Shown in pieces: positions 23,726 to 36,518 of a DNA stretch of 44,504 nt. The notes under the pieces were generated by a model. It searched no databases and was not told where the DNA came from. It was given only the letters and a program-made list of their open reading frames with translations. Positions within the stretch are counted from its first letter, which is position 1, and each line of letters starts with the position of its first letter. This DNA comes from a virus (Duplodnaviria; Heunggongvirae; Uroviricota; Caudoviricetes), in IMG/VR virus record IMGVR_UViG_2537561991_000021; one strand, written 5' to 3'. The position numbers were made by a program, and so were the translations under genes.

Positions 23726-24067
23726 TTACTCCTTAGAGCCACCAAACTTGTTACCGATTACTCGCATTGCAGCCCCACGAATAGCATCGACACCGATCAG
23801 CCCAACACCACCACCAATGGCAACAGAAAGAGATTTAGGCCATCCAACATACTCAAGAGCGGATGCAAAGGTCAGCGTCAGAGCACCACAGAGCAAAATC
23901 TCAAGCGTTTTTCGTTTCCAGCCGCCGCCACCGCCAAAATAGGCAATGCGCAAGCCAGCCATAACAATTGACATAACCACTGCGCCCAACGGCGTATCTC
24001 CACGCCACCAACTTTGTAAGAGTTCCAGTAAGTCAGGCCAGGAATGAGGAGCATTGTGCATTTTCAT
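23726..24067 (-). CDS. holin with dual-start motif
   Basis: Begins MKMHNAPHSW (Met-Lys-Met as in lambda S107/S105), preceded by a GGAGGTG RBS, and has hydrophobic helices. The ORF-track start at 24085 includes the RBS. Confidence 0.8.
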   Translation of the reverse strand: MKMHNAPHSWPDLLELLQSWWRGDTPLGAVVMSIVMAGLRIAYFGGGGGWKRKTLEILLCGALTLTFASALEYVGWPKSLSVAIGGGVGLIGVDAIRGAAMRVIGNKFGGSKE

Positions 24068-24163
24068 ACTTCCCACCTCCGCCATTACGGGGTGTTGTTG
24101 AAAGGCGGGCCCTGCGTATACGCCCGTAGGATTGGGTTATGAGCCGTCCTTCGGTGGGCCCTG

Positions 24164-24191
24164 AATACAAAAAAAGTTCGCCATAGCGAAC
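24164..24191 (-). terminator. rho-independent terminator in the Q-to-holin region
   Basis: Minus-strand hairpin GTTCGC-TATG-GCGAAC followed by TTTTTTTGTATT. Confidence 0.65.
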
Positions 24192-24418
24192 CTTGTTAAA
24201 TTTGTTAAAAAAGGAAGTTATTTAACATAATGTACGTTATAGGAACCACACGATCCCCGCTCGCAATAGATTTGCGATGAAAGGCCTATTTAATCAACTT
24301 AAGTGGTCCAGAATGACGAAATTCGAGTGAATAAAAGGTGCATAAAAAAGGGCAAAAACTGCATAGCGTTTTTTCGCAGCGAAAGCCCTGTTTTATTAGC
24401 TTTTCCCCAGAATGGGGC

Positions 24419-24445
24419 AATAAAAAAGGCCCCCTTGCGGAAGCC
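24419..24445 (-). terminator. second rho-independent terminator in the Q-to-holin region
   Basis: Minus-strand stem GGCTTCC-GCAA-GGGGGCC (two G-U pairs, GNRA-type loop) followed by TTTTTTATT. Confidence 0.55.
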
Positions 24446-24512
24446 TCTTCGTGATGAACTGTTTTCAACAGATATCAGGCTAATCGGCTTTTTGGAATTC
24501 CACAACTATTTT

Positions 24513-24853
24513 TTATCTTACCTTGATGCCTGATGCCGTCAGATGTTTACGACAGTCCTGAATACCTTCGTTATAACCCGCATCGTAGAAGCTATCCGGC
24601 TTTGCCTTCAGCGCAGGAAGCGTAACGCTGGTAGCTCTTCGTTCGGCCAGAACACCTGCCTGAAAGAGTGTCCACATCAACTGAACTGCTGAATCACAGT
24701 AAGTAACATCTTCACTGTACAATTCTCGTTCAATCCGATGCCAAGTTGAGCCTTCATTGATGCGCCAATATTACCTTTGACCTGCAACGACAGGTCTGGG
24801 TACCTCTGTTCCATGAAGCTTTCAAATCTGTTGCGAACGCTGATCAGAGCCAT
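24513..24853 (-). pseudogene. frameshifted hypothetical gene directly after Q
   Basis: A 58-codon ATG ORF with an AAGGGA RBS (MALISVRNRFESFMEQ...) overlaps a -1-frame ORF of 69 aa or more (24513..24722). No slippery heptamer is visible in the overlap. Confidence 0.4.
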
Positions 24854-24884
24854 CTGGTTCCCTTACGTGATTGATTGCTGGATA

Positions 24885-25307
24885 TTATGCCGCCGAGCAG
24901 CTCCTACGCAAAGTCCTGATAGCCTGAGGCTTTGACTGAACCGACTGATCCATTTCGAGCACCACATCCAGCATGGCTAAGCAACCGTCAATAAATCCCT
25001 CTGCCGCCTGAAGCCTCTTCAGAACGTGGGTGTGAGATACGCCGAGCTTCTCACCCATCGCCCGCACGGGCATGGCCTGGACGTAATGCCACTCAAGGAG
25101 CGTGCACAGATACGGATCTTTTTTCTTCAGGCAGCTCATAGCGGAGTTGATGATAAGACCGTCATTGTCACTGCATTTCAGCCTTCCAGACTGCGTCGCG
25201 GGTAGCAGATTCTTAAACCCGGCTGCAACAGGAGGAAAGTAGACGCTACCACCTTCACTCGCTGCCCAGCCACCCCAGCGCTCTAAAACCTGTTGAATAT
25301 TACGCAT
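24885..25307 (-). CDS. Q: late-gene antiterminator Q (QuuD-like)
   Basis: 140 aa; MRNIQQVLERWGGWAA...AAGFK...LLEWHYV...KRLQAAEGFIDGCL resembles DLP12 QuuD-type antiterminators as recalled; located upstream of the lysis cassette. Confidence 0.8.
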   Translation of the reverse strand: MRNIQQVLERWGGWAASEGGSVYFPPVAAGFKNLLPATQSGRLKCSDNDGLIINSAMSCLKKKDPYLCTLLEWHYVQAMPVRAMGEKLGVSHTHVLKRLQAAEGFIDGCLAMLDVVLEMDQSVQSKPQAIRTLRRSCSAA

Positions 25308-25436
25308 AGCTCTGACCTCTACGTTTTGCTACGAAAAAATTTTCTGAGAACCACGTCTGTTTATCCGTGGGTGTGGATAACGCAGTTCCGATTCGCTTAT
25401 TACACGCTGTTATGTGCAAAAAATTCCTTGTTCGGC

Positions 25437-25608
25437 CTGTACCAATCTGTACCCACCTGTACCAGCTCTTTTCAAACCTTTTCCCCAAGCGACTTATATA
25501 TATATATGGGGTTCTTAGTAATTAGGTTGGTACAGATGGTACAGTTGGTACTGACCTTTAAATTCAATTAGTTAAAATGTACCAACCTCTATTTTGAGGC
25601 TGGTACAG
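25437..25608. repeat. iteron-like heptamer array flanking a (TA)7 tract; candidate replication origin
   Basis: CTGTACC at 25437, 25447 and 25457 (10-bp phasing); (TA)n at about 25494..25507; inverted copies GGTACAG at 25529, 25539 and 25602, GGTACTG at 25548, TGTACC at 25578. Confidence 0.6.
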
Positions 25609-27781
25609 GTTGGGACACCGCCTCAAAAATTCGAGTCATTTTCCCCCCAATTCGCCTTTGGGCACGCTTATACCCGCAATTTTGCAAAACATTACTAATT
25701 CGCATTTCTTCGCGTTTTCCGATGCGGTCAGGATTTAGCCCAATCGCATCACGCAAAACATCACTTGCGCGTAAAAATTCGCAATTTCGCGGAAGTTCAT
25801 TAGTCATCAGGTCTGGCGTGTCGAGCCATTTCTCTACCGTTTCAAGCCAAGCATCCTTGATGGTGTACTGTTCATGGACACTCGCTGCCAGTTGTTCAGC
25901 CTCACGGAACTGGATACCCCCCAGACGCTGAAACACCTCACGAGCCTCAGCCCAAAGTAAAAGGAGATCTCTTTTTATCGCTTTCACGTCGACTTTCGAC
26001 ACTTCCACGGGGAGCCAGCGACGGTTACCAGTCTTGTCCGCAAGGAATTCGTCCTCATTGGTGGTACCAACGAACACCAGGCGACGAGGAAACTGGGTGG
26101 CGAACTCCCGGTATTTCGGGATCCAGTTTTCGTGAGTACGCGTCACAAACGCTTTGATTGACTCCAGCTCTTTGGTATTAAGTCCGCGCAGTTCACCAAT
26201 CTCTGCCACCAGCCGACCACGCATTTTTCGAGCGAGATCATCGTCTTTTTCGGCAAAAGAGATTTCAGTAAAAAACGCAGGATCAGGGCTCAGTGCCTCC
26301 ACTCCGGAAGACTTACCGCAGCCCTGCGGACCAACGAGGATCGGCACCATATCCGCTTTGATGCCTGGCTCCAGTACTCGCCCCGCCAACGCGGTCCACA
26401 TGTACATAGACACCGCACGGGTATAAGGCGTGTCGGCTGTACCGAAGTGCGTATGGTAGAAACATTCGATGCGCGGCACGCCATCCCACTCCAGCCCGTT
26501 CAGCCAGGTAATCGCTGAATCGAATGGTTGTTCATCGGCTGCAAGTAACACCACATCGCGAATAAGTTCACGACCAACAGGTTTAAATCCCCGCTTTTCC
26601 ATCGTGATGCGCAGGCGCGCATAATCCGCATCGGTGAATGCTCGCCATTGTCCGGATCCTGCAGAGGCAAACATGATTTCGTCGCGGAACTGGTCAAAGC
26701 GAATATCGATGTCCACAAAATCAGGGCGTACTACTGCTTTGGCTGCGTTGCTGATGGTTGCCTCGATACGCCCCCATTTATCACGCTCGAAAGCAGGCAG
26801 CGGTAAAGGTTCCGCCACTTCGGTGCTGGTCAGATCTTCGAAATCGTCGTTGCGGATCCCGATGGCATTAAGGAAATCTCCGTCATCACGATGCGCACAA
26901 CTGGCATGCAGGCATTTAAAATGCCCCTGCTCAAAGCCCGCGGTTCCCGCAGGAAAATAAGCTGTGCTTGTTGGATCGCCCCCGCTACTGTGGCCGTCTT
27001 CAAACGGACAGCGGATATATCGTTCACCATTTGCGCCATCCAGCAGCGTCCAGCCATTGGCATCAAGATATTCAGCTGTATCATCCGTCGCGCCGGGCGT
27101 GAATGCTGATCGGTCGCGCATCTTCGTGTTGCCCGCTTCGGTGGTTACCGACACAGGGAGTTGTTCAGCCAGGCGCTGCCACAGCGTTTCAAGCTGCTCA
27201 CCAGTAATAGCCGGAGGTTCATCCGGCAAACCACCGTCCCATTCAATACGCGCGCCGCTGCTGTGCGTACCACAGGCAACGAACTGCTGCCCGTTCGCCA
27301 GCAACTCGATAATGCCCATATCCCCCGCCAGGCGATGGATACGCTTACAGAAATCACCATCAACGGCCAGCAGATACAGACACTTATTACTGTTTGCTCG
27401 CCAGCGTCGCGGCGGCAACTCCCCCAGAAGTTGCACAAGCGTTTTGCGAATATCTGCCTGAATGTCTTCATCTTCGCTATCGCAGTCCAGCGCCAGCCAG
27501 CCATGGCCTGTACGCACGCAGATGCCATAATCCGGTTCATTCGACCAGCGGGCAAAATCATGCTCAGTAACAACATACCCGGTCCATTGAGCAATACCGG
27601 TGACCTGGCGGTCCCGGTTATAGCGACTTGGCGTCTTACCCAGCGCTTTCAGTTTACTATCAGGGGATATGGTCGCACCGGGGTTACATACAACTGGGAG
27701 AAGATGATCAGTTCTCCCCAATACCAGGTCGAAATGAAACCACTCATCAGGCGTAGCTCCCCATGGTTTGCTATCGGACAT
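25589..27781 (-). CDS. DNA primase / replication initiator with C-terminal P-loop NTPase
   Basis: 730 aa; Walker A GPQGCGKSS; Cys/His cluster CPFEDGH...CLHASCAH; tightly coupled to the cro-like gene (TAACCCATG). Confidence 0.7.
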   Translation of the reverse strand: MSDSKPWGATPDEWFHFDLVLGRTDHLLPVVCNPGATISPDSKLKALGKTPSRYNRDRQVTGIAQWTGYVVTEHDFARWSNEPDYGICVRTGHGWLALDCDSEDEDIQADIRKTLVQLLGELPPRRWRANSNKCLYLLAVDGDFCKRIHRLAGDMGIIELLANGQQFVACGTHSSGARIEWDGGLPDEPPAITGEQLETLWQRLAEQLPVSVTTEAGNTKMRDRSAFTPGATDDTAEYLDANGWTLLDGANGERYIRCPFEDGHSSGGDPTSTAYFPAGTAGFEQGHFKCLHASCAHRDDGDFLNAIGIRNDDFEDLTSTEVAEPLPLPAFERDKWGRIEATISNAAKAVVRPDFVDIDIRFDQFRDEIMFASAGSGQWRAFTDADYARLRITMEKRGFKPVGRELIRDVVLLAADEQPFDSAITWLNGLEWDGVPRIECFYHTHFGTADTPYTRAVSMYMWTALAGRVLEPGIKADMVPILVGPQGCGKSSGVEALSPDPAFFTEISFAEKDDDLARKMRGRLVAEIGELRGLNTKELESIKAFVTRTHENWIPKYREFATQFPRRLVFVGTTNEDEFLADKTGNRRWLPVEVSKVDVKAIKRDLLLLWAEAREVFQRLGGIQFREAEQLAASVHEQYTIKDAWLETVEKWLDTPDLMTNELPRNCEFLRASDVLRDAIGLNPDRIGKREEMRISNVLQNCGYKRAQRRIGGKMTRIFEAVSQPVPASK

Positions 27782-34038: not shown

Positions 34039-35610
34039 ATGGACACCTCACTTGCTCATGAGAACGCCCGCCTGCGGGCACTGTTGCAGACGCAACAGGA
34101 CACCATCCGCCAGATGGCTGAATACAACCGCCTGCTCTCACAGCGGGTGGCGGCTTATGCTTCCGAAATCAACCGGCTGAAGGCGCTGGTTGCGAAACTG
34201 CAACGTATGCAGTTCGGTAAAAGCTCAGAAAAACTTCGTGCAAAAACCGAACGGCAGATACAGGAAGCACAGGAGCGAATCAGCGCACTTCAGGAAGAAA
34301 TGGCGGAAACGCTGGGTGAGCAATATGACCCGGTACTGCCATCCGCCCTGCGCCAGTCTTCAGCCCGTAAACCGTTACCGGCCTCACTTCCCCGTGAAAC
34401 CCGGGTTATCCGGCCGGAAGAGGAATGCTGTCCTGCCTGTGGTGGTGAACTCAGTTCTCTGGGATGTGATGTGTCAGAGCAACTGGAGCTTATCAGCAGC
34501 GCCTTTAAGGTTATCGAAACACAACGTCCGAAACAGGCCTGTTGCCGGTGCGACCATATCGTGCAGGCACCAGTACCTTCAAAACCCATTGCACGCAGTT
34601 ATGCCGGAGCGGGGCTTCTGGCCCATGTTGTCACCGGGAAATATGCAGACCATCTGCCGTTATACCGCCAGTCAGAAATATACCGTCGTCAGGGAGTGGA
34701 GCTGAGCCGTGCCACACTGGGGCGCTGGACAGGTGCTGTTGCTGAACTGCTGGAGCCGCTGTATGACGTCCTGCGCCAGTATGTGCTGATGCCCGGTAAA
34801 GTCCATGCTGATGATATCCCCGTCCCGGTCCAGGAGCCGGGCAGCGGTAAAACCCGGACAGCCCGGCTGTGGGTCTACGTCCGTGATGACCGTAACGCCG
34901 GTTCACAGATGCCCCCGGCGGTCTGGTTCGCGTACAGTCCGGACCGGAAAGGTATCCATCCACAAAATCACCTGGCCGGTTACAGCGGTGTGCTTCAGGC
35001 CGATGCTTACGGTGGTTACCGGGCGTTATACGAATCCGGCAGAATAACGGAAGTCGCGTGTATGGCTCATGCCCGGAGAAAAATCCACGATGTGCATGCA
35101 AGAGCGCCCACCTACATCACCACGGAAGCCCTGCAGCGTATCGGTGAACTGTATGCCATCGAGGCAGAGGTCCGGGGCTGTTCAGCAGAACAGCGTCTGG
35201 CGGCAAGAAAAGCCAGAGCCGCGCCACTGATGCAGTCACTGTATGACTGGATACAGCAACAGATGAAAACACTGTCGCGTCACTCAGATACGGCAAAAGC
35301 GTTCGCATACCTGCTGAAACAGTGGGATGCACTGAACGTGTACTGCAGTAATGGCTGGGTGGAAATCGACAACAACATCGCAGAGAACGCCTTACGGGGA
35401 GTGGCCGTAGGCCGGAAAAACTGGATGTTCGCGGGTTCCGACAGCGGTGGTGAACATGCGGCGGTGTTGTACTCGCTGATCGGCACATGCCGTCTGAACA
35501 ATGTGGAGCCAGAAAAGTGGCTGCGTTACGTCATTGAACATATCCAGGACTGGCCGGCAAACCGGGTACGCGATCTGTTGCCCTGGAAAGTTGATCTGAG
35601 CTCTCAGTAA
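34039..35610 (+). CDS. IS66-family transposase TnpC
   Basis: 523 aa with leucine-zipper-like N-terminus and CPACGG...CxxC zinc motif; right inverted repeat 30 bp downstream. Confidence 0.85.
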
Positions 35611-35641
35611 ATATCAATACGGTTCTGACGAGTCGCTTACT

Positions 35642-35836
35642 CCCTATGCAGGGTGCTATGTAAACGCCGTTATCGATATCTGGGCACAGGACAATAATTT
35701 CGGTAAACGCATTAATGCCTCACTCGGCGGAGTCCAGTTCCTGCGAGACGGCGATGCATTCGCTGGCGGCGGAGTGGCAAGCGCTGACGATTTCGACGAT
35801 ATCAGCGAAGGTGCTGATGCTGAAGCACTAATTTAA
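35642..35836 (+). pseudogene. putative ssDNA-binding protein, 3' part
   Basis: In-frame continuation after the IS, ending in an acidic tail (ADDFDDISEGADAEALI) typical of SSB C-termini. Confidence 0.6.
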
Positions 35837-35888
35837 CCCTACTTCATAGACGCCCGGTTAAACACCGGGCTACTGATTAGGCGTATAA

Positions 35889-36518
35889 TCACTCAGGAAT
35901 CTTAATCTTTCTCAATTCTTTATTTAGTTCACAGTTCTTTTTCTTAGACGGGAAAGTATCATACATCCAAAAACCAACAGTCTCTAAAACTATTATCATA
36001 ACCATATACACAAGATAATTTAAAAGGCCTTCATTTTGCCCTATGGAAATAATGCAGATAATAGAAAAAAGGGTAAACAGCACAAAACACAGAAAGGAAA
36101 ACAGACGACTAATAATAAATAAAAAACCTGAAAAATCAACATTAATAAAAAACACTCCGTTATCTTTCTCTATATAATTCTGAAGCTTAATCAACTGATT
36201 TATATACTGTCTTTTTTCTAATCTATTGCAAATGTAAATAACATCTCTTCGGTTATAAGATGATTGCAATTTCAGCGCATCACGAATAATTTTATCATTT
36301 ATTCTTTTTTCTATGGCACTCTTATCCTCCTCATCCAGATAACGTTCATACTTAACTAAATATAAAATTAACTTCTTAACATATTTAGGCTCTTTATACT
36401 TATAATTAAAAATGATCTTTCTTATCCAGACTCCCATAACAATCAAACATGAAAAAATATATCCAGCTATTTTCTCCAGATGCTCTGTATGGTCAATCAA
36501 GTATTGGATCATATGCAT
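35889..36518 (-). CDS. AT-rich hypothetical membrane protein, antisense to the early operon
   Basis: 209 aa, Lys/Ile/Tyr/Asn-rich, with hydrophobic helices (IFSCLIVMGVWI, FLFIISRLFSFLCFVLFTLFSIICIISI, YLVYMVMIIVLETVGFWMY); GC far below flanking phage genes. Confidence 0.65.
   Translation of the reverse strand: MHMIQYLIDHTEHLEKIAGYIFSCLIVMGVWIRKIIFNYKYKEPKYVKKLILYLVKYERYLDEEDKSAIEKRINDKIIRDALKLQSSYNRRDVIYICNRLEKRQYINQLIKLQNYIEKDNGVFFINVDFSGFLFIISRLFSFLCFVLFTLFSIICIISIGQNEGLLNYLVYMVMIIVLETVGFWMYDTFPSKKKNCELNKELRKIKIPE

Follow-up and report, generated by a model that had tools for sequence, protein, structure and literature searches.

The locus considered here raises the question of what lies between the antitermination gene Q and the holin gene of an Escherichia coli prophage, i.e. 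where the late promoter is located and whether a frameshifted open reading frame (ORF) next to Q is a cargo gene. The window, by which we mean the whole stretch of DNA analyzed (44,504 nt), was found to be the reverse complement of positions 2580997–2625500 of the chromosome of E. coli FDAARGOS_1059 (accession no. NZ_CP066032.1). The late genes of the prophage are all encoded on the window minus strand, and so are all features of the studied region. The gap between Q and the holin gene measured 817 nt, in agreement with the approximately 800 bp given in an earlier sequence-only reading of this stretch. That reading had also regarded the gap as a Q-dependent late control region, and Q (PF06530), a putative promoter, terminators, and the lysis genes were found in this order. 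Judged by comparison with related phages, the region is likely to be a standard late switch (Q, pR′, tR′) with a Q antiterminator of the Q21/Q933W family, belonging to a temperate myovirus prophage in which an accessory gene has been broken. This is a routine annotation, by which the putative late promoter, Q-binding site, and terminators of this prophage type are placed.

The Q gene (24885–25307) encodes a protein of 140 aa of the Q21/Q933W family with a full-length match to PF06530 (E 5e-42), named 'antiterminator Q family protein' in RefSeq. Used as a single-sequence query the protein gave no match in the PDB; a profile was needed, and one built from nine Q relatives matched the phage 21 Q structures 6P18 and 6JNX (E 9e-10). 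The protein was 42–47% identical to Q of Shiga toxin (Stx) phages. At the other end of the gap, the first late gene (23726–24067) encodes a lambda-family holin S (PF05106, E 1e-27; TIGR01594, E 7e-40; RefSeq) and is followed on the same strand by genes for a GH24 lysozyme, an Rz-like protein, the terminase, and head and tail proteins.

Shortly after the stop codon of the ORF that follows Q, we found a 17-mer, TTGTGGAATTCCAAAAA (24505–24489), which occurs once in the window (0.01 expected) and is identical in Rahnella, Yersinia ruckeri, and Escherichia sp. despite a protein identity of about 45%. Exact copies of the 17-mer were present in 57 viral contigs, and 44 of these showed Q-type contexts: Q, the ORF, and then the motif in 23 contigs; a Q (60–70% identical) directly followed by the motif, with the ORF absent, in 18; and truncated loci with the same flanks in three. 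The other 13 contigs contained unrelated chance matches within coding sequence. The motif follows Q with or without the ORF and thus belongs to Q, not to the ORF. All 16 distinct Q-linked variants showed a -10 hexamer of the form TAnnnT (T1, A2, and T6 kept; TAGCCT, TAGTCT, TAATCT, TAATGT, TAACCT, or TACTCT) after a 17-nt spacer, and TAnnnT was found at this position in none of the chance matches. By this comparison the late promoter pR′ was placed with fair confidence at 24505–24477, with a -35 hexamer TTGTGG (24505–24500) beginning 8 nt past the ORF stop codon, a 17-nt spacer, and a -10 hexamer TAGCCT (24482–24477). Its start site would be at about 24472–24469. The sequence-only reading had held that neither the late promoter nor the Q site could be placed confidently; both now have a position, again with fair confidence. 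Two other promoter candidates were rejected. The first would lie in the 31 nt that separate Q from the ORF, but these contain nothing besides a Shine-Dalgarno sequence and are reduced to 15 nt in Rahnella and Yersinia; the second, TTGCGA-19-TATAAC (approximately 24266–24236), has no conserved hexamer.

Within the spacer of pR′ there is a perfect 10-bp palindrome, TGGAATTCCA (24502–24493), followed by an A run (to 24489). It is proposed as the Q-binding element on the grounds that it tracks the putative helix class of Q and lies at a fixed distance from the -10 hexamer. The classes were compared in 62 distant Q loci from other Enterobacterales and in viral loci, by the 16 residues that precede an AEGF motif, which are likely the recognition helix. 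Each class of these residues was shown to have its own palindrome, located either 3′ of Q or within the 3′ end of Q. The palindrome TGGAATTCCA was found with SHTxVLKRLQ, TTCGTWACGAA with CSEGKIRQxLM, TTGCGTACGCAA with CADGTIRKQ, GCGGNCCGC with DEKxxRI or SERE, GCGCTACGC with xIRQQxQ (SEGFIRQQLQ in two of three loci), and TTACGWWCGTAA with CSDxxIGK (933W type). In five of the seven palindrome classes, nearly all forward sites have a TAnnnT hexamer that begins exactly 15 nt past the palindrome centre, while one site in 64 is expected by chance. The exceptions were the TTGCGTACGCAA class, which mostly has nAnnnT at this position, and GTAATTAC, for which there is a single Q-linked site. This comparison indicates that Q proteins related to Q933W can be sorted into six or more specificity classes; every class has a palindrome of its own, set at a constant spacing from the -10. 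The pairing provides a sequence rule for locating late promoters, and so for predicting the Q by which a given stx or cargo gene is controlled. Among the papers of the library that was searched, none mentions both 'Q binding element' and 933W. A tandem TTTAACAA repeat ahead of the terminator t2 (see below) was also considered as Q site and was rejected, as it is missing from many relatives.

At seven loci, from Erwinia, Kalamiella, Rosenbergiella, and members of the Enterobacteriaceae, the unit of palindrome and -10 was observed three to five times within a few kb of one Q. One Q may control several promoters in loci of this type.

Further support came from an E. coli prophage with a different Q allele, whose sequence otherwise agrees with that of the window to about 97% between 24433 and the holin gene. 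This prophage contains the palindrome GCGCTACGC and its own -10 inside the Q end, and a hairpin of its own replaces the first terminator, t1. Among related prophages, the mosaic joints coincided with the boundaries of functional units, one joint lying within the ORF (24569) and one within the t1 hairpin (24433). Q (24885–25307 in the window), promoter, and t1 are exchanged as a block, which gives independent support that these parts work together.

Three terminator-like hairpins were found between the promoter and the holin gene. The first, t1 (24450–24421; GGCTTCC/GGGGGCC and a T run; free energy (dG) -17.1 kcal/mol, z -2.7), is the presumed equivalent of tR′. It lies about 20–50 nt past the predicted start site and ends about 50 nt after it. 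Three of its base pairs showed compensatory changes across 10 variants, and in some relatives another hairpin is found at the same place. The second hairpin with a T run, t1b (24389–24343; dG -14.6, z -1.7), is weaker. Since an A tract precedes it and a T tract follows it, it has the form of a terminator on both strands, and it was kept in 21 diverged variants, including phages without Q. The third, t2 (24194–24166; GGTTCGC/GCGAACT and T7; dG -10.4, z -3.9), showed one compensatory pair, and relatives have other hairpin-plus-T-run sequences at the same spot. The terminator scan reported only t2 (24194–24173), and folding shows t1 and t2. The number of terminator-like sites in the region was not above that in shuffled sequence (3 vs. 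2.6 expected), so the credibility of t1 and t2 comes from the comparison with relatives. A search of Rfam with 24000–24960 at E ≤ 5 gave sub-threshold terminator-like matches only. Both minus-strand terminators named in the sequence-only reading were found to be real, but there are three such hairpins and not two. Besides, a 67-nt copy of the t1b region (84% identical) was observed in an unrelated prophage of E. coli EC2001, where it separates the genes for the small and large terminase subunits (positions 1501–1567 of the locus sequence); the t1b hairpin may be a portable terminator module.

What was observed directly are these sequence features, the degree to which they are conserved, the pairing of palindrome and Q class, and the compensatory hairpin changes. 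From them, and by analogy with phages 21, lambda, and 933W, we infer promoter activity, Q binding, pausing, and read-through as follows. In the lysogen and in early infection, RNA polymerase would start near 24470 and halt at t1, giving a leader of about 50 nt. Once made, Q would bind the palindrome and load onto polymerase paused near the promoter, and the Q-loaded polymerase would then ignore t1, t1b, and t2. Such read-through would result in transcription of the genes for holin, lysozyme, Rz, terminase, and structural proteins.

Some findings weigh against this interpretation. Both hexamers of pR′ are weak (3/6 each compared to the consensus), and a consensus promoter scan missed the promoter; its placement comes from comparison, and its activity and Q binding are deduced from the same material. 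No clear sigma-dependent pause element follows the predicted start: the GTTAAGAGTGG box of most relatives is GATATCTGTTGAAAAC here, there is no TAnnnT within +1 to +25, and the TAAGAG and TACATT boxes of relatives are absent in the window variant. AACAGT (24462–24457) is a candidate pause element, which resembles AACGAT of lambda. Q21 binds a direct repeat (ATTGAGCA, AATGAGCA), whereas the element in the window is a 10-bp palindrome, so the binding mode assumed here differs from the structurally solved one. The palindromes hint at a binding geometry unlike that in the Q21 structures. Finally, a conserved block nearer to the holin gene (24263–24199) could hold another promoter.

This block belongs to a conserved module of about 200 nt (24405–24199), which was present in 146 E. 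coli genomes and begins with t1b, the bidirectional hairpin, continues with some 100 nt of variable sequence, and ends with the near-invariant block (24263–24199; CGAG..GATCG.GTGG...ATAACGTACATTATGTTAAAT, seven variable nt, and TTTTTTAACAAATT) identified by comparison of viral contigs. An 18-mer from the module was found in 55 viral contigs, 51 times in the module context and four times in unrelated sequence. The block is conserved ahead of different downstream genes and also in phages that lack Q. In Q-less phages with a VapE-type primase, the module starts right past the stop codon of a gene for a 90-aa helix-turn-helix regulator (phrog_16553), located in the place of Q, and precedes a different set of structural genes. 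A conserved non-coding module thus precedes late genes whichever regulator the phage uses, and of the gap that had been taken as a whole to be the late control region of Q, about 200 nt form a separate module that is shared with Q-less phages. Between t1 and the holin gene, the only ORFs present in whole or in part are short (≤76 aa); none of these was compared with databases, and the sequence is treated as conserved non-coding. No tRNA or tmRNA was detected by ARAGORN, no Rfam family matched anywhere in the window at gathering score, and no cargo is present between t1 and the holin gene, in line with the previous statement that the gap contains no tRNA or toxin gene.

The block contains, on the plus strand, a candidate antisense promoter (24202–24231; TTGTTA, 18 nt, CATAAT; 9/12), which is the best sigma-70-like match of the block and of the entire 2-kb region. 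Both hexamers are invariant across 21 variants, among which seven nucleotides of the spacer differ in sequence but never in number. It is therefore conceivable, though rather doubtful, that the module is an independent regulatory element common to Q-bearing and Q-less temperate phages with VapE-type primase, encoding a constitutive plus-strand antisense RNA of about 160–190 nt. This RNA would start about 7 nt past CATAAT (near 24238), end at the bidirectional hairpin (approximately 24345–24400), and oppose leaky transcription toward the holin gene as a safety lock on the lysis genes; it could coexist with the late switch described above. The roughly 35 nt past the -10 are conserved in a seed-like manner, and the distal hairpin is followed by a T-rich tail on the plus strand also. 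However, consensus folding of the module from the 21 variants on either strand (about -9 kcal/mol) revealed no supported helices beyond the terminator, and Rfam was negative on both strands. The pattern of invariant hexamers fits an antisense promoter and equally fits a protein-binding site.

The same block might instead contain the functional late promoter, reading toward the holin gene upstream of t2 in dependence on a phage activator, with 24505–24477 being secondary or inactive. The near-invariance of the block over 21 diverged variants, its position directly ahead of the first late gene (whichever gene this is), and its presence in phages in which the 90-aa regulator replaces Q would agree with such a promoter, and there is a weak match on the late strand (TTAAAT, 17 nt, AATTAT). 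Nevertheless, the late-strand -10 of the window itself is AATTTA, in which the critical last T is missing, and the TTGCGA-19-TATAAC candidate becomes GGCGAG...GATAAC in relatives. A canonical terminator, t2, lies directly 3′ of the block in the Q-bearing phages, and a promoter in the block would leave the change of palindrome with Q allele unexplained. We consider this alternative unlikely and retain pR′ at 24505–24477 as the late promoter.

The ORF between Q and pR′ was found to be a broken gene of the PF26207 family. Its N-terminal fragment of 58 codons (24853–24677; detected by ORF scan) is preceded by a Shine-Dalgarno sequence, AAGGGA (24864–24859), 5 nt ahead of the ATG, and residues 1–38 are identical to the intact protein WP_001174014.1. 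The C-terminal part (24736–24513; pairwise alignment with H10407) is now in the -1 frame, which runs on to the stop codon at 24515–24513; a listed ORF of 69 aa (24722–24513) is this continuation. A well-initiated 58-codon ORF extended in the -1 frame, as described from the sequence, was thereby confirmed. Compared to enterotoxigenic E. coli (ETEC) H10407, the window showed two differences over 961 nt: an A is missing after 24737, i.e. between 24737 and 24736 (GGCATC^GGATTG compared to GGCATCAGGATTG), and there is a C/T difference at 24399. When the A is restored, the ORF encodes the 113-aa protein WP_001174014.1 of ETEC H10407, to which the fragments are otherwise identical. In RefSeq, the newer name of this protein is 'phiTE_015 family protein' (Pfam PF26207, Phage_phiTE_015). 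PF26207 is precomputed on all 14 homologues of the ORF, and the homologue loci are labelled alike. Local copies of Pfam and NCBIfam gave no match to the ORF, probably since the PF26207 model is newer than these copies.

The deletion allele is rare. Of 63 complete E. coli genomes with the segment, 61 aligned with 95–99% identity across the site, and among the matches listed for these 61 genomes every one spans 62 nt, i.e. has the extra base. The deletion was confirmed solely in the genome of the window, and at most one other of the 63 could carry it. This rarity, together with three further prophage genes flagged by RefSeq as frameshifted (an ANR-family regulator, a DUF2213 head protein, and a gene of the baseplate region), which could mean systematic indel errors, would be in accordance with a sequencing or assembly error in a strain whose gene is really intact. 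Such an error is, however, very improbable. The deletion and the linked C at 24399 recurred in two IMG/VR contigs from other assemblies, 100% identical over 3819 and 2759 nt, and the site is not a homopolymer; these two findings make an artefact unlikely. In addition, the 58-aa and 69-aa fragments exist as separate entries in the protein collection. The tail-fibre end of the prophage is broken by an IS66 element (RefSeq annotation), with a truncated tail fibre assembly gene, and this insertion marks the prophage as decaying; the three other frameshifted genes are consistent with such decay. In all likelihood, the deletion is thus a genuine mutation in a single strain lineage, and the sequence-only reading, which called the ORF frameshifted and suggested a comparison with intact homologues, was borne out on both counts, intact 113-aa versions being present in related prophages (H10407 and others). 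Programmed -1 ribosomal frameshifting, with which the -1 frame of the second part and the complete homologue formed by both parts would agree, was excluded, since the junction GGCATCGGATTG has no slippery heptamer and 13 of 13 aligned homologues (Escherichia, Rahnella, Yersinia, and uncultured) are single-frame; no stimulatory structure was seen at the junction, though none was searched for.

Homologues of the ORF, about 45% identical to the E. coli protein, were also found directly after a PF06530 Q in Rahnella, Y. ruckeri, and Escherichia sp. In these relatives, cargo (methyltransferases, a lipase, DUF6037) is located 3′ of the promoter and terminator and 5′ of the holin gene. The assignment of the ORF to this cargo slot in the sequence-only reading did not hold, as the late promoter proposed here lies downstream of the ORF, its -35 being separated from the ORF end by 8 nt. 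As the best-supported late promoter lies 3′ of the ORF, the ORF would be the last gene of the early (Q) transcription unit and not post-terminator cargo. In phages of the vB_EcoM-611R5 type, a 285-nt internal deletion spares only the ribosome-binding site, the ATG, and the last 56 nt of the ORF, and in a third class of prophages the PF26207 gene is wholly absent. These gene contents indicate that the PF26207 gene is a dispensable accessory gene at the end of the Q unit, and the frameshifted ORF is regarded as a decayed copy of it. The family is very small: an exhaustive profile search gave only 16 cluster representatives in 1.84 billion. A PHROGs search with the protein gave only families of unknown function and one dubious 'head closure' label, covering half of the protein. 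The AlphaFold2 model of the 113-aa protein was mediocre (predicted local distance difference test (pLDDT) 72; predicted template modeling score (pTM) 0.45) and consists of four helices; Foldseek searches against the PDB and viral structures showed nothing significant except one uncharacterised Salmonella phage protein, and no paper was found in a literature search on phiTE_015.

The prophage has a size of about 40 kb and is inserted beside yfhL. In addition to the late genes mentioned, which include a lambda-type holin gene and myovirus head and tail genes, it contains genes for an integrase, a DEAD-box helicase, a family A DNA polymerase, and DUF2800 and DUF2815 proteins, as well as a LexA-like repressor, a Cro-like protein, a VapE primase-helicase, and Q. 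About 60–150 of the 5426 complete E. coli genomes contain a prophage of this type, among them those of ETEC H10407 and of O103, O111, O55, and O45 strains. The copy in FDAARGOS_1059 is probably defective. Two further observations were made in the window. Between the stop codon of the VapE primase-helicase gene and the start of Q (25434–25617), about nine copies of TGGTACA/TGTACCA with 9–10 bp spacing were found in three clusters of alternating orientation, flanking an (AT)6 run (25496–25508). These may be iterons round an unwinding element, i.e. a replication origin, or could be a regulator-binding array upstream of Q. A gene for a TIR-domain protein (RefSeq I6I16_RS12610; approximately 35148–35909, plus strand) is located among the early genes beside the DNA polymerase gene, and is possibly anti-phage defence cargo.

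Among known systems, phage 21 (Q21; PDB 6P18, 6P19, and 6JNX; accession no. OL657228) shares with the window the PF06530 family and a promoter (putative in the window) just after the early genes. In both, the spacer of this promoter contains a Q-specific element (proposed in the window), an intrinsic terminator lies no more than about 50 nt from the start (predicted in the window), and a dual-start holin gene follows. In OL657228, the -35 TTGACA lies 7 nt past the Q stop codon, and the Q-binding element and the -10 come next. Transcription starts 7 nt past the -10, a pause element covers +2 to +8, and the terminator ends near +50; the order in the window matches this layout. Q21 is distant; the profile match covers only residues 8–87. 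Furthermore, phage 21 has tRNAs between tR′ and S, whereas the window has two more terminators and the conserved non-coding module. The window also has an extra gene between Q and pR′, and no convincing counterpart of the pause element was identified in its variant.

The closest characterised Q is Q933 of the Stx phages 933W and Sp5 (42–47% identity). In Sp5, dRNA-seq and Term-seq have located the PR′ start and the tR′ 3′ end; PR′ is active in lysogens, and the terminated leader is a by-product RNA of 258 nt that is processed to the 74-nt Hfq-binding StxS, with an RNase E cut (GU^AUU) at +173 and a 3′ end at +258 (PMC7547250). The published Sp5 coordinates did not fit NC_002695.2 and were reconciled by means of the published lengths (+173 and +258), which put the start 5–8 nt past TATCAT, a hexamer 15 nt after the palindrome TTACGATCGTAA (PMC7547250). 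Sp5 thus shares with the window a palindrome at the same 15-nt distance from the -10 (TATCAT). Close relatives of the window Q share with Sp5 the 22 nt that come next (TAAGAGTGGTTAC.TTGCCACG), i.e. the initial transcribed sequence TAAGAGTGGTTAC...CCACG. In contrast, the palindrome and recognition helix differ, no stx, tRNA, or other cargo follows in the window, and the first terminator lies about 50 nt from the predicted start. The predicted leader of about 50 nt is unrelated in sequence to the Sp5 leader and had no Rfam match that would point to a StxS-like RNA.

Lambda differs from the window in its Q, which is of an unrelated family (PF03589), and in having no gene between Q and pR′. It shares a promoter-proximal terminator and a Q site between -35 and -10, followed by S, R, and Rz. 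The start of the holin gene is lambda-like as well: with its RefSeq start at 24067, the window holin begins Met-Lys-Met (24067 and 24061), as in the dual-start S gene of lambda. A predicted hairpin (CACCCCG...CGGAGGTG; 24059–24100) covers the Shine-Dalgarno sequence of the holin gene and resembles the structure that sets the holin:antiholin ratio in lambda.

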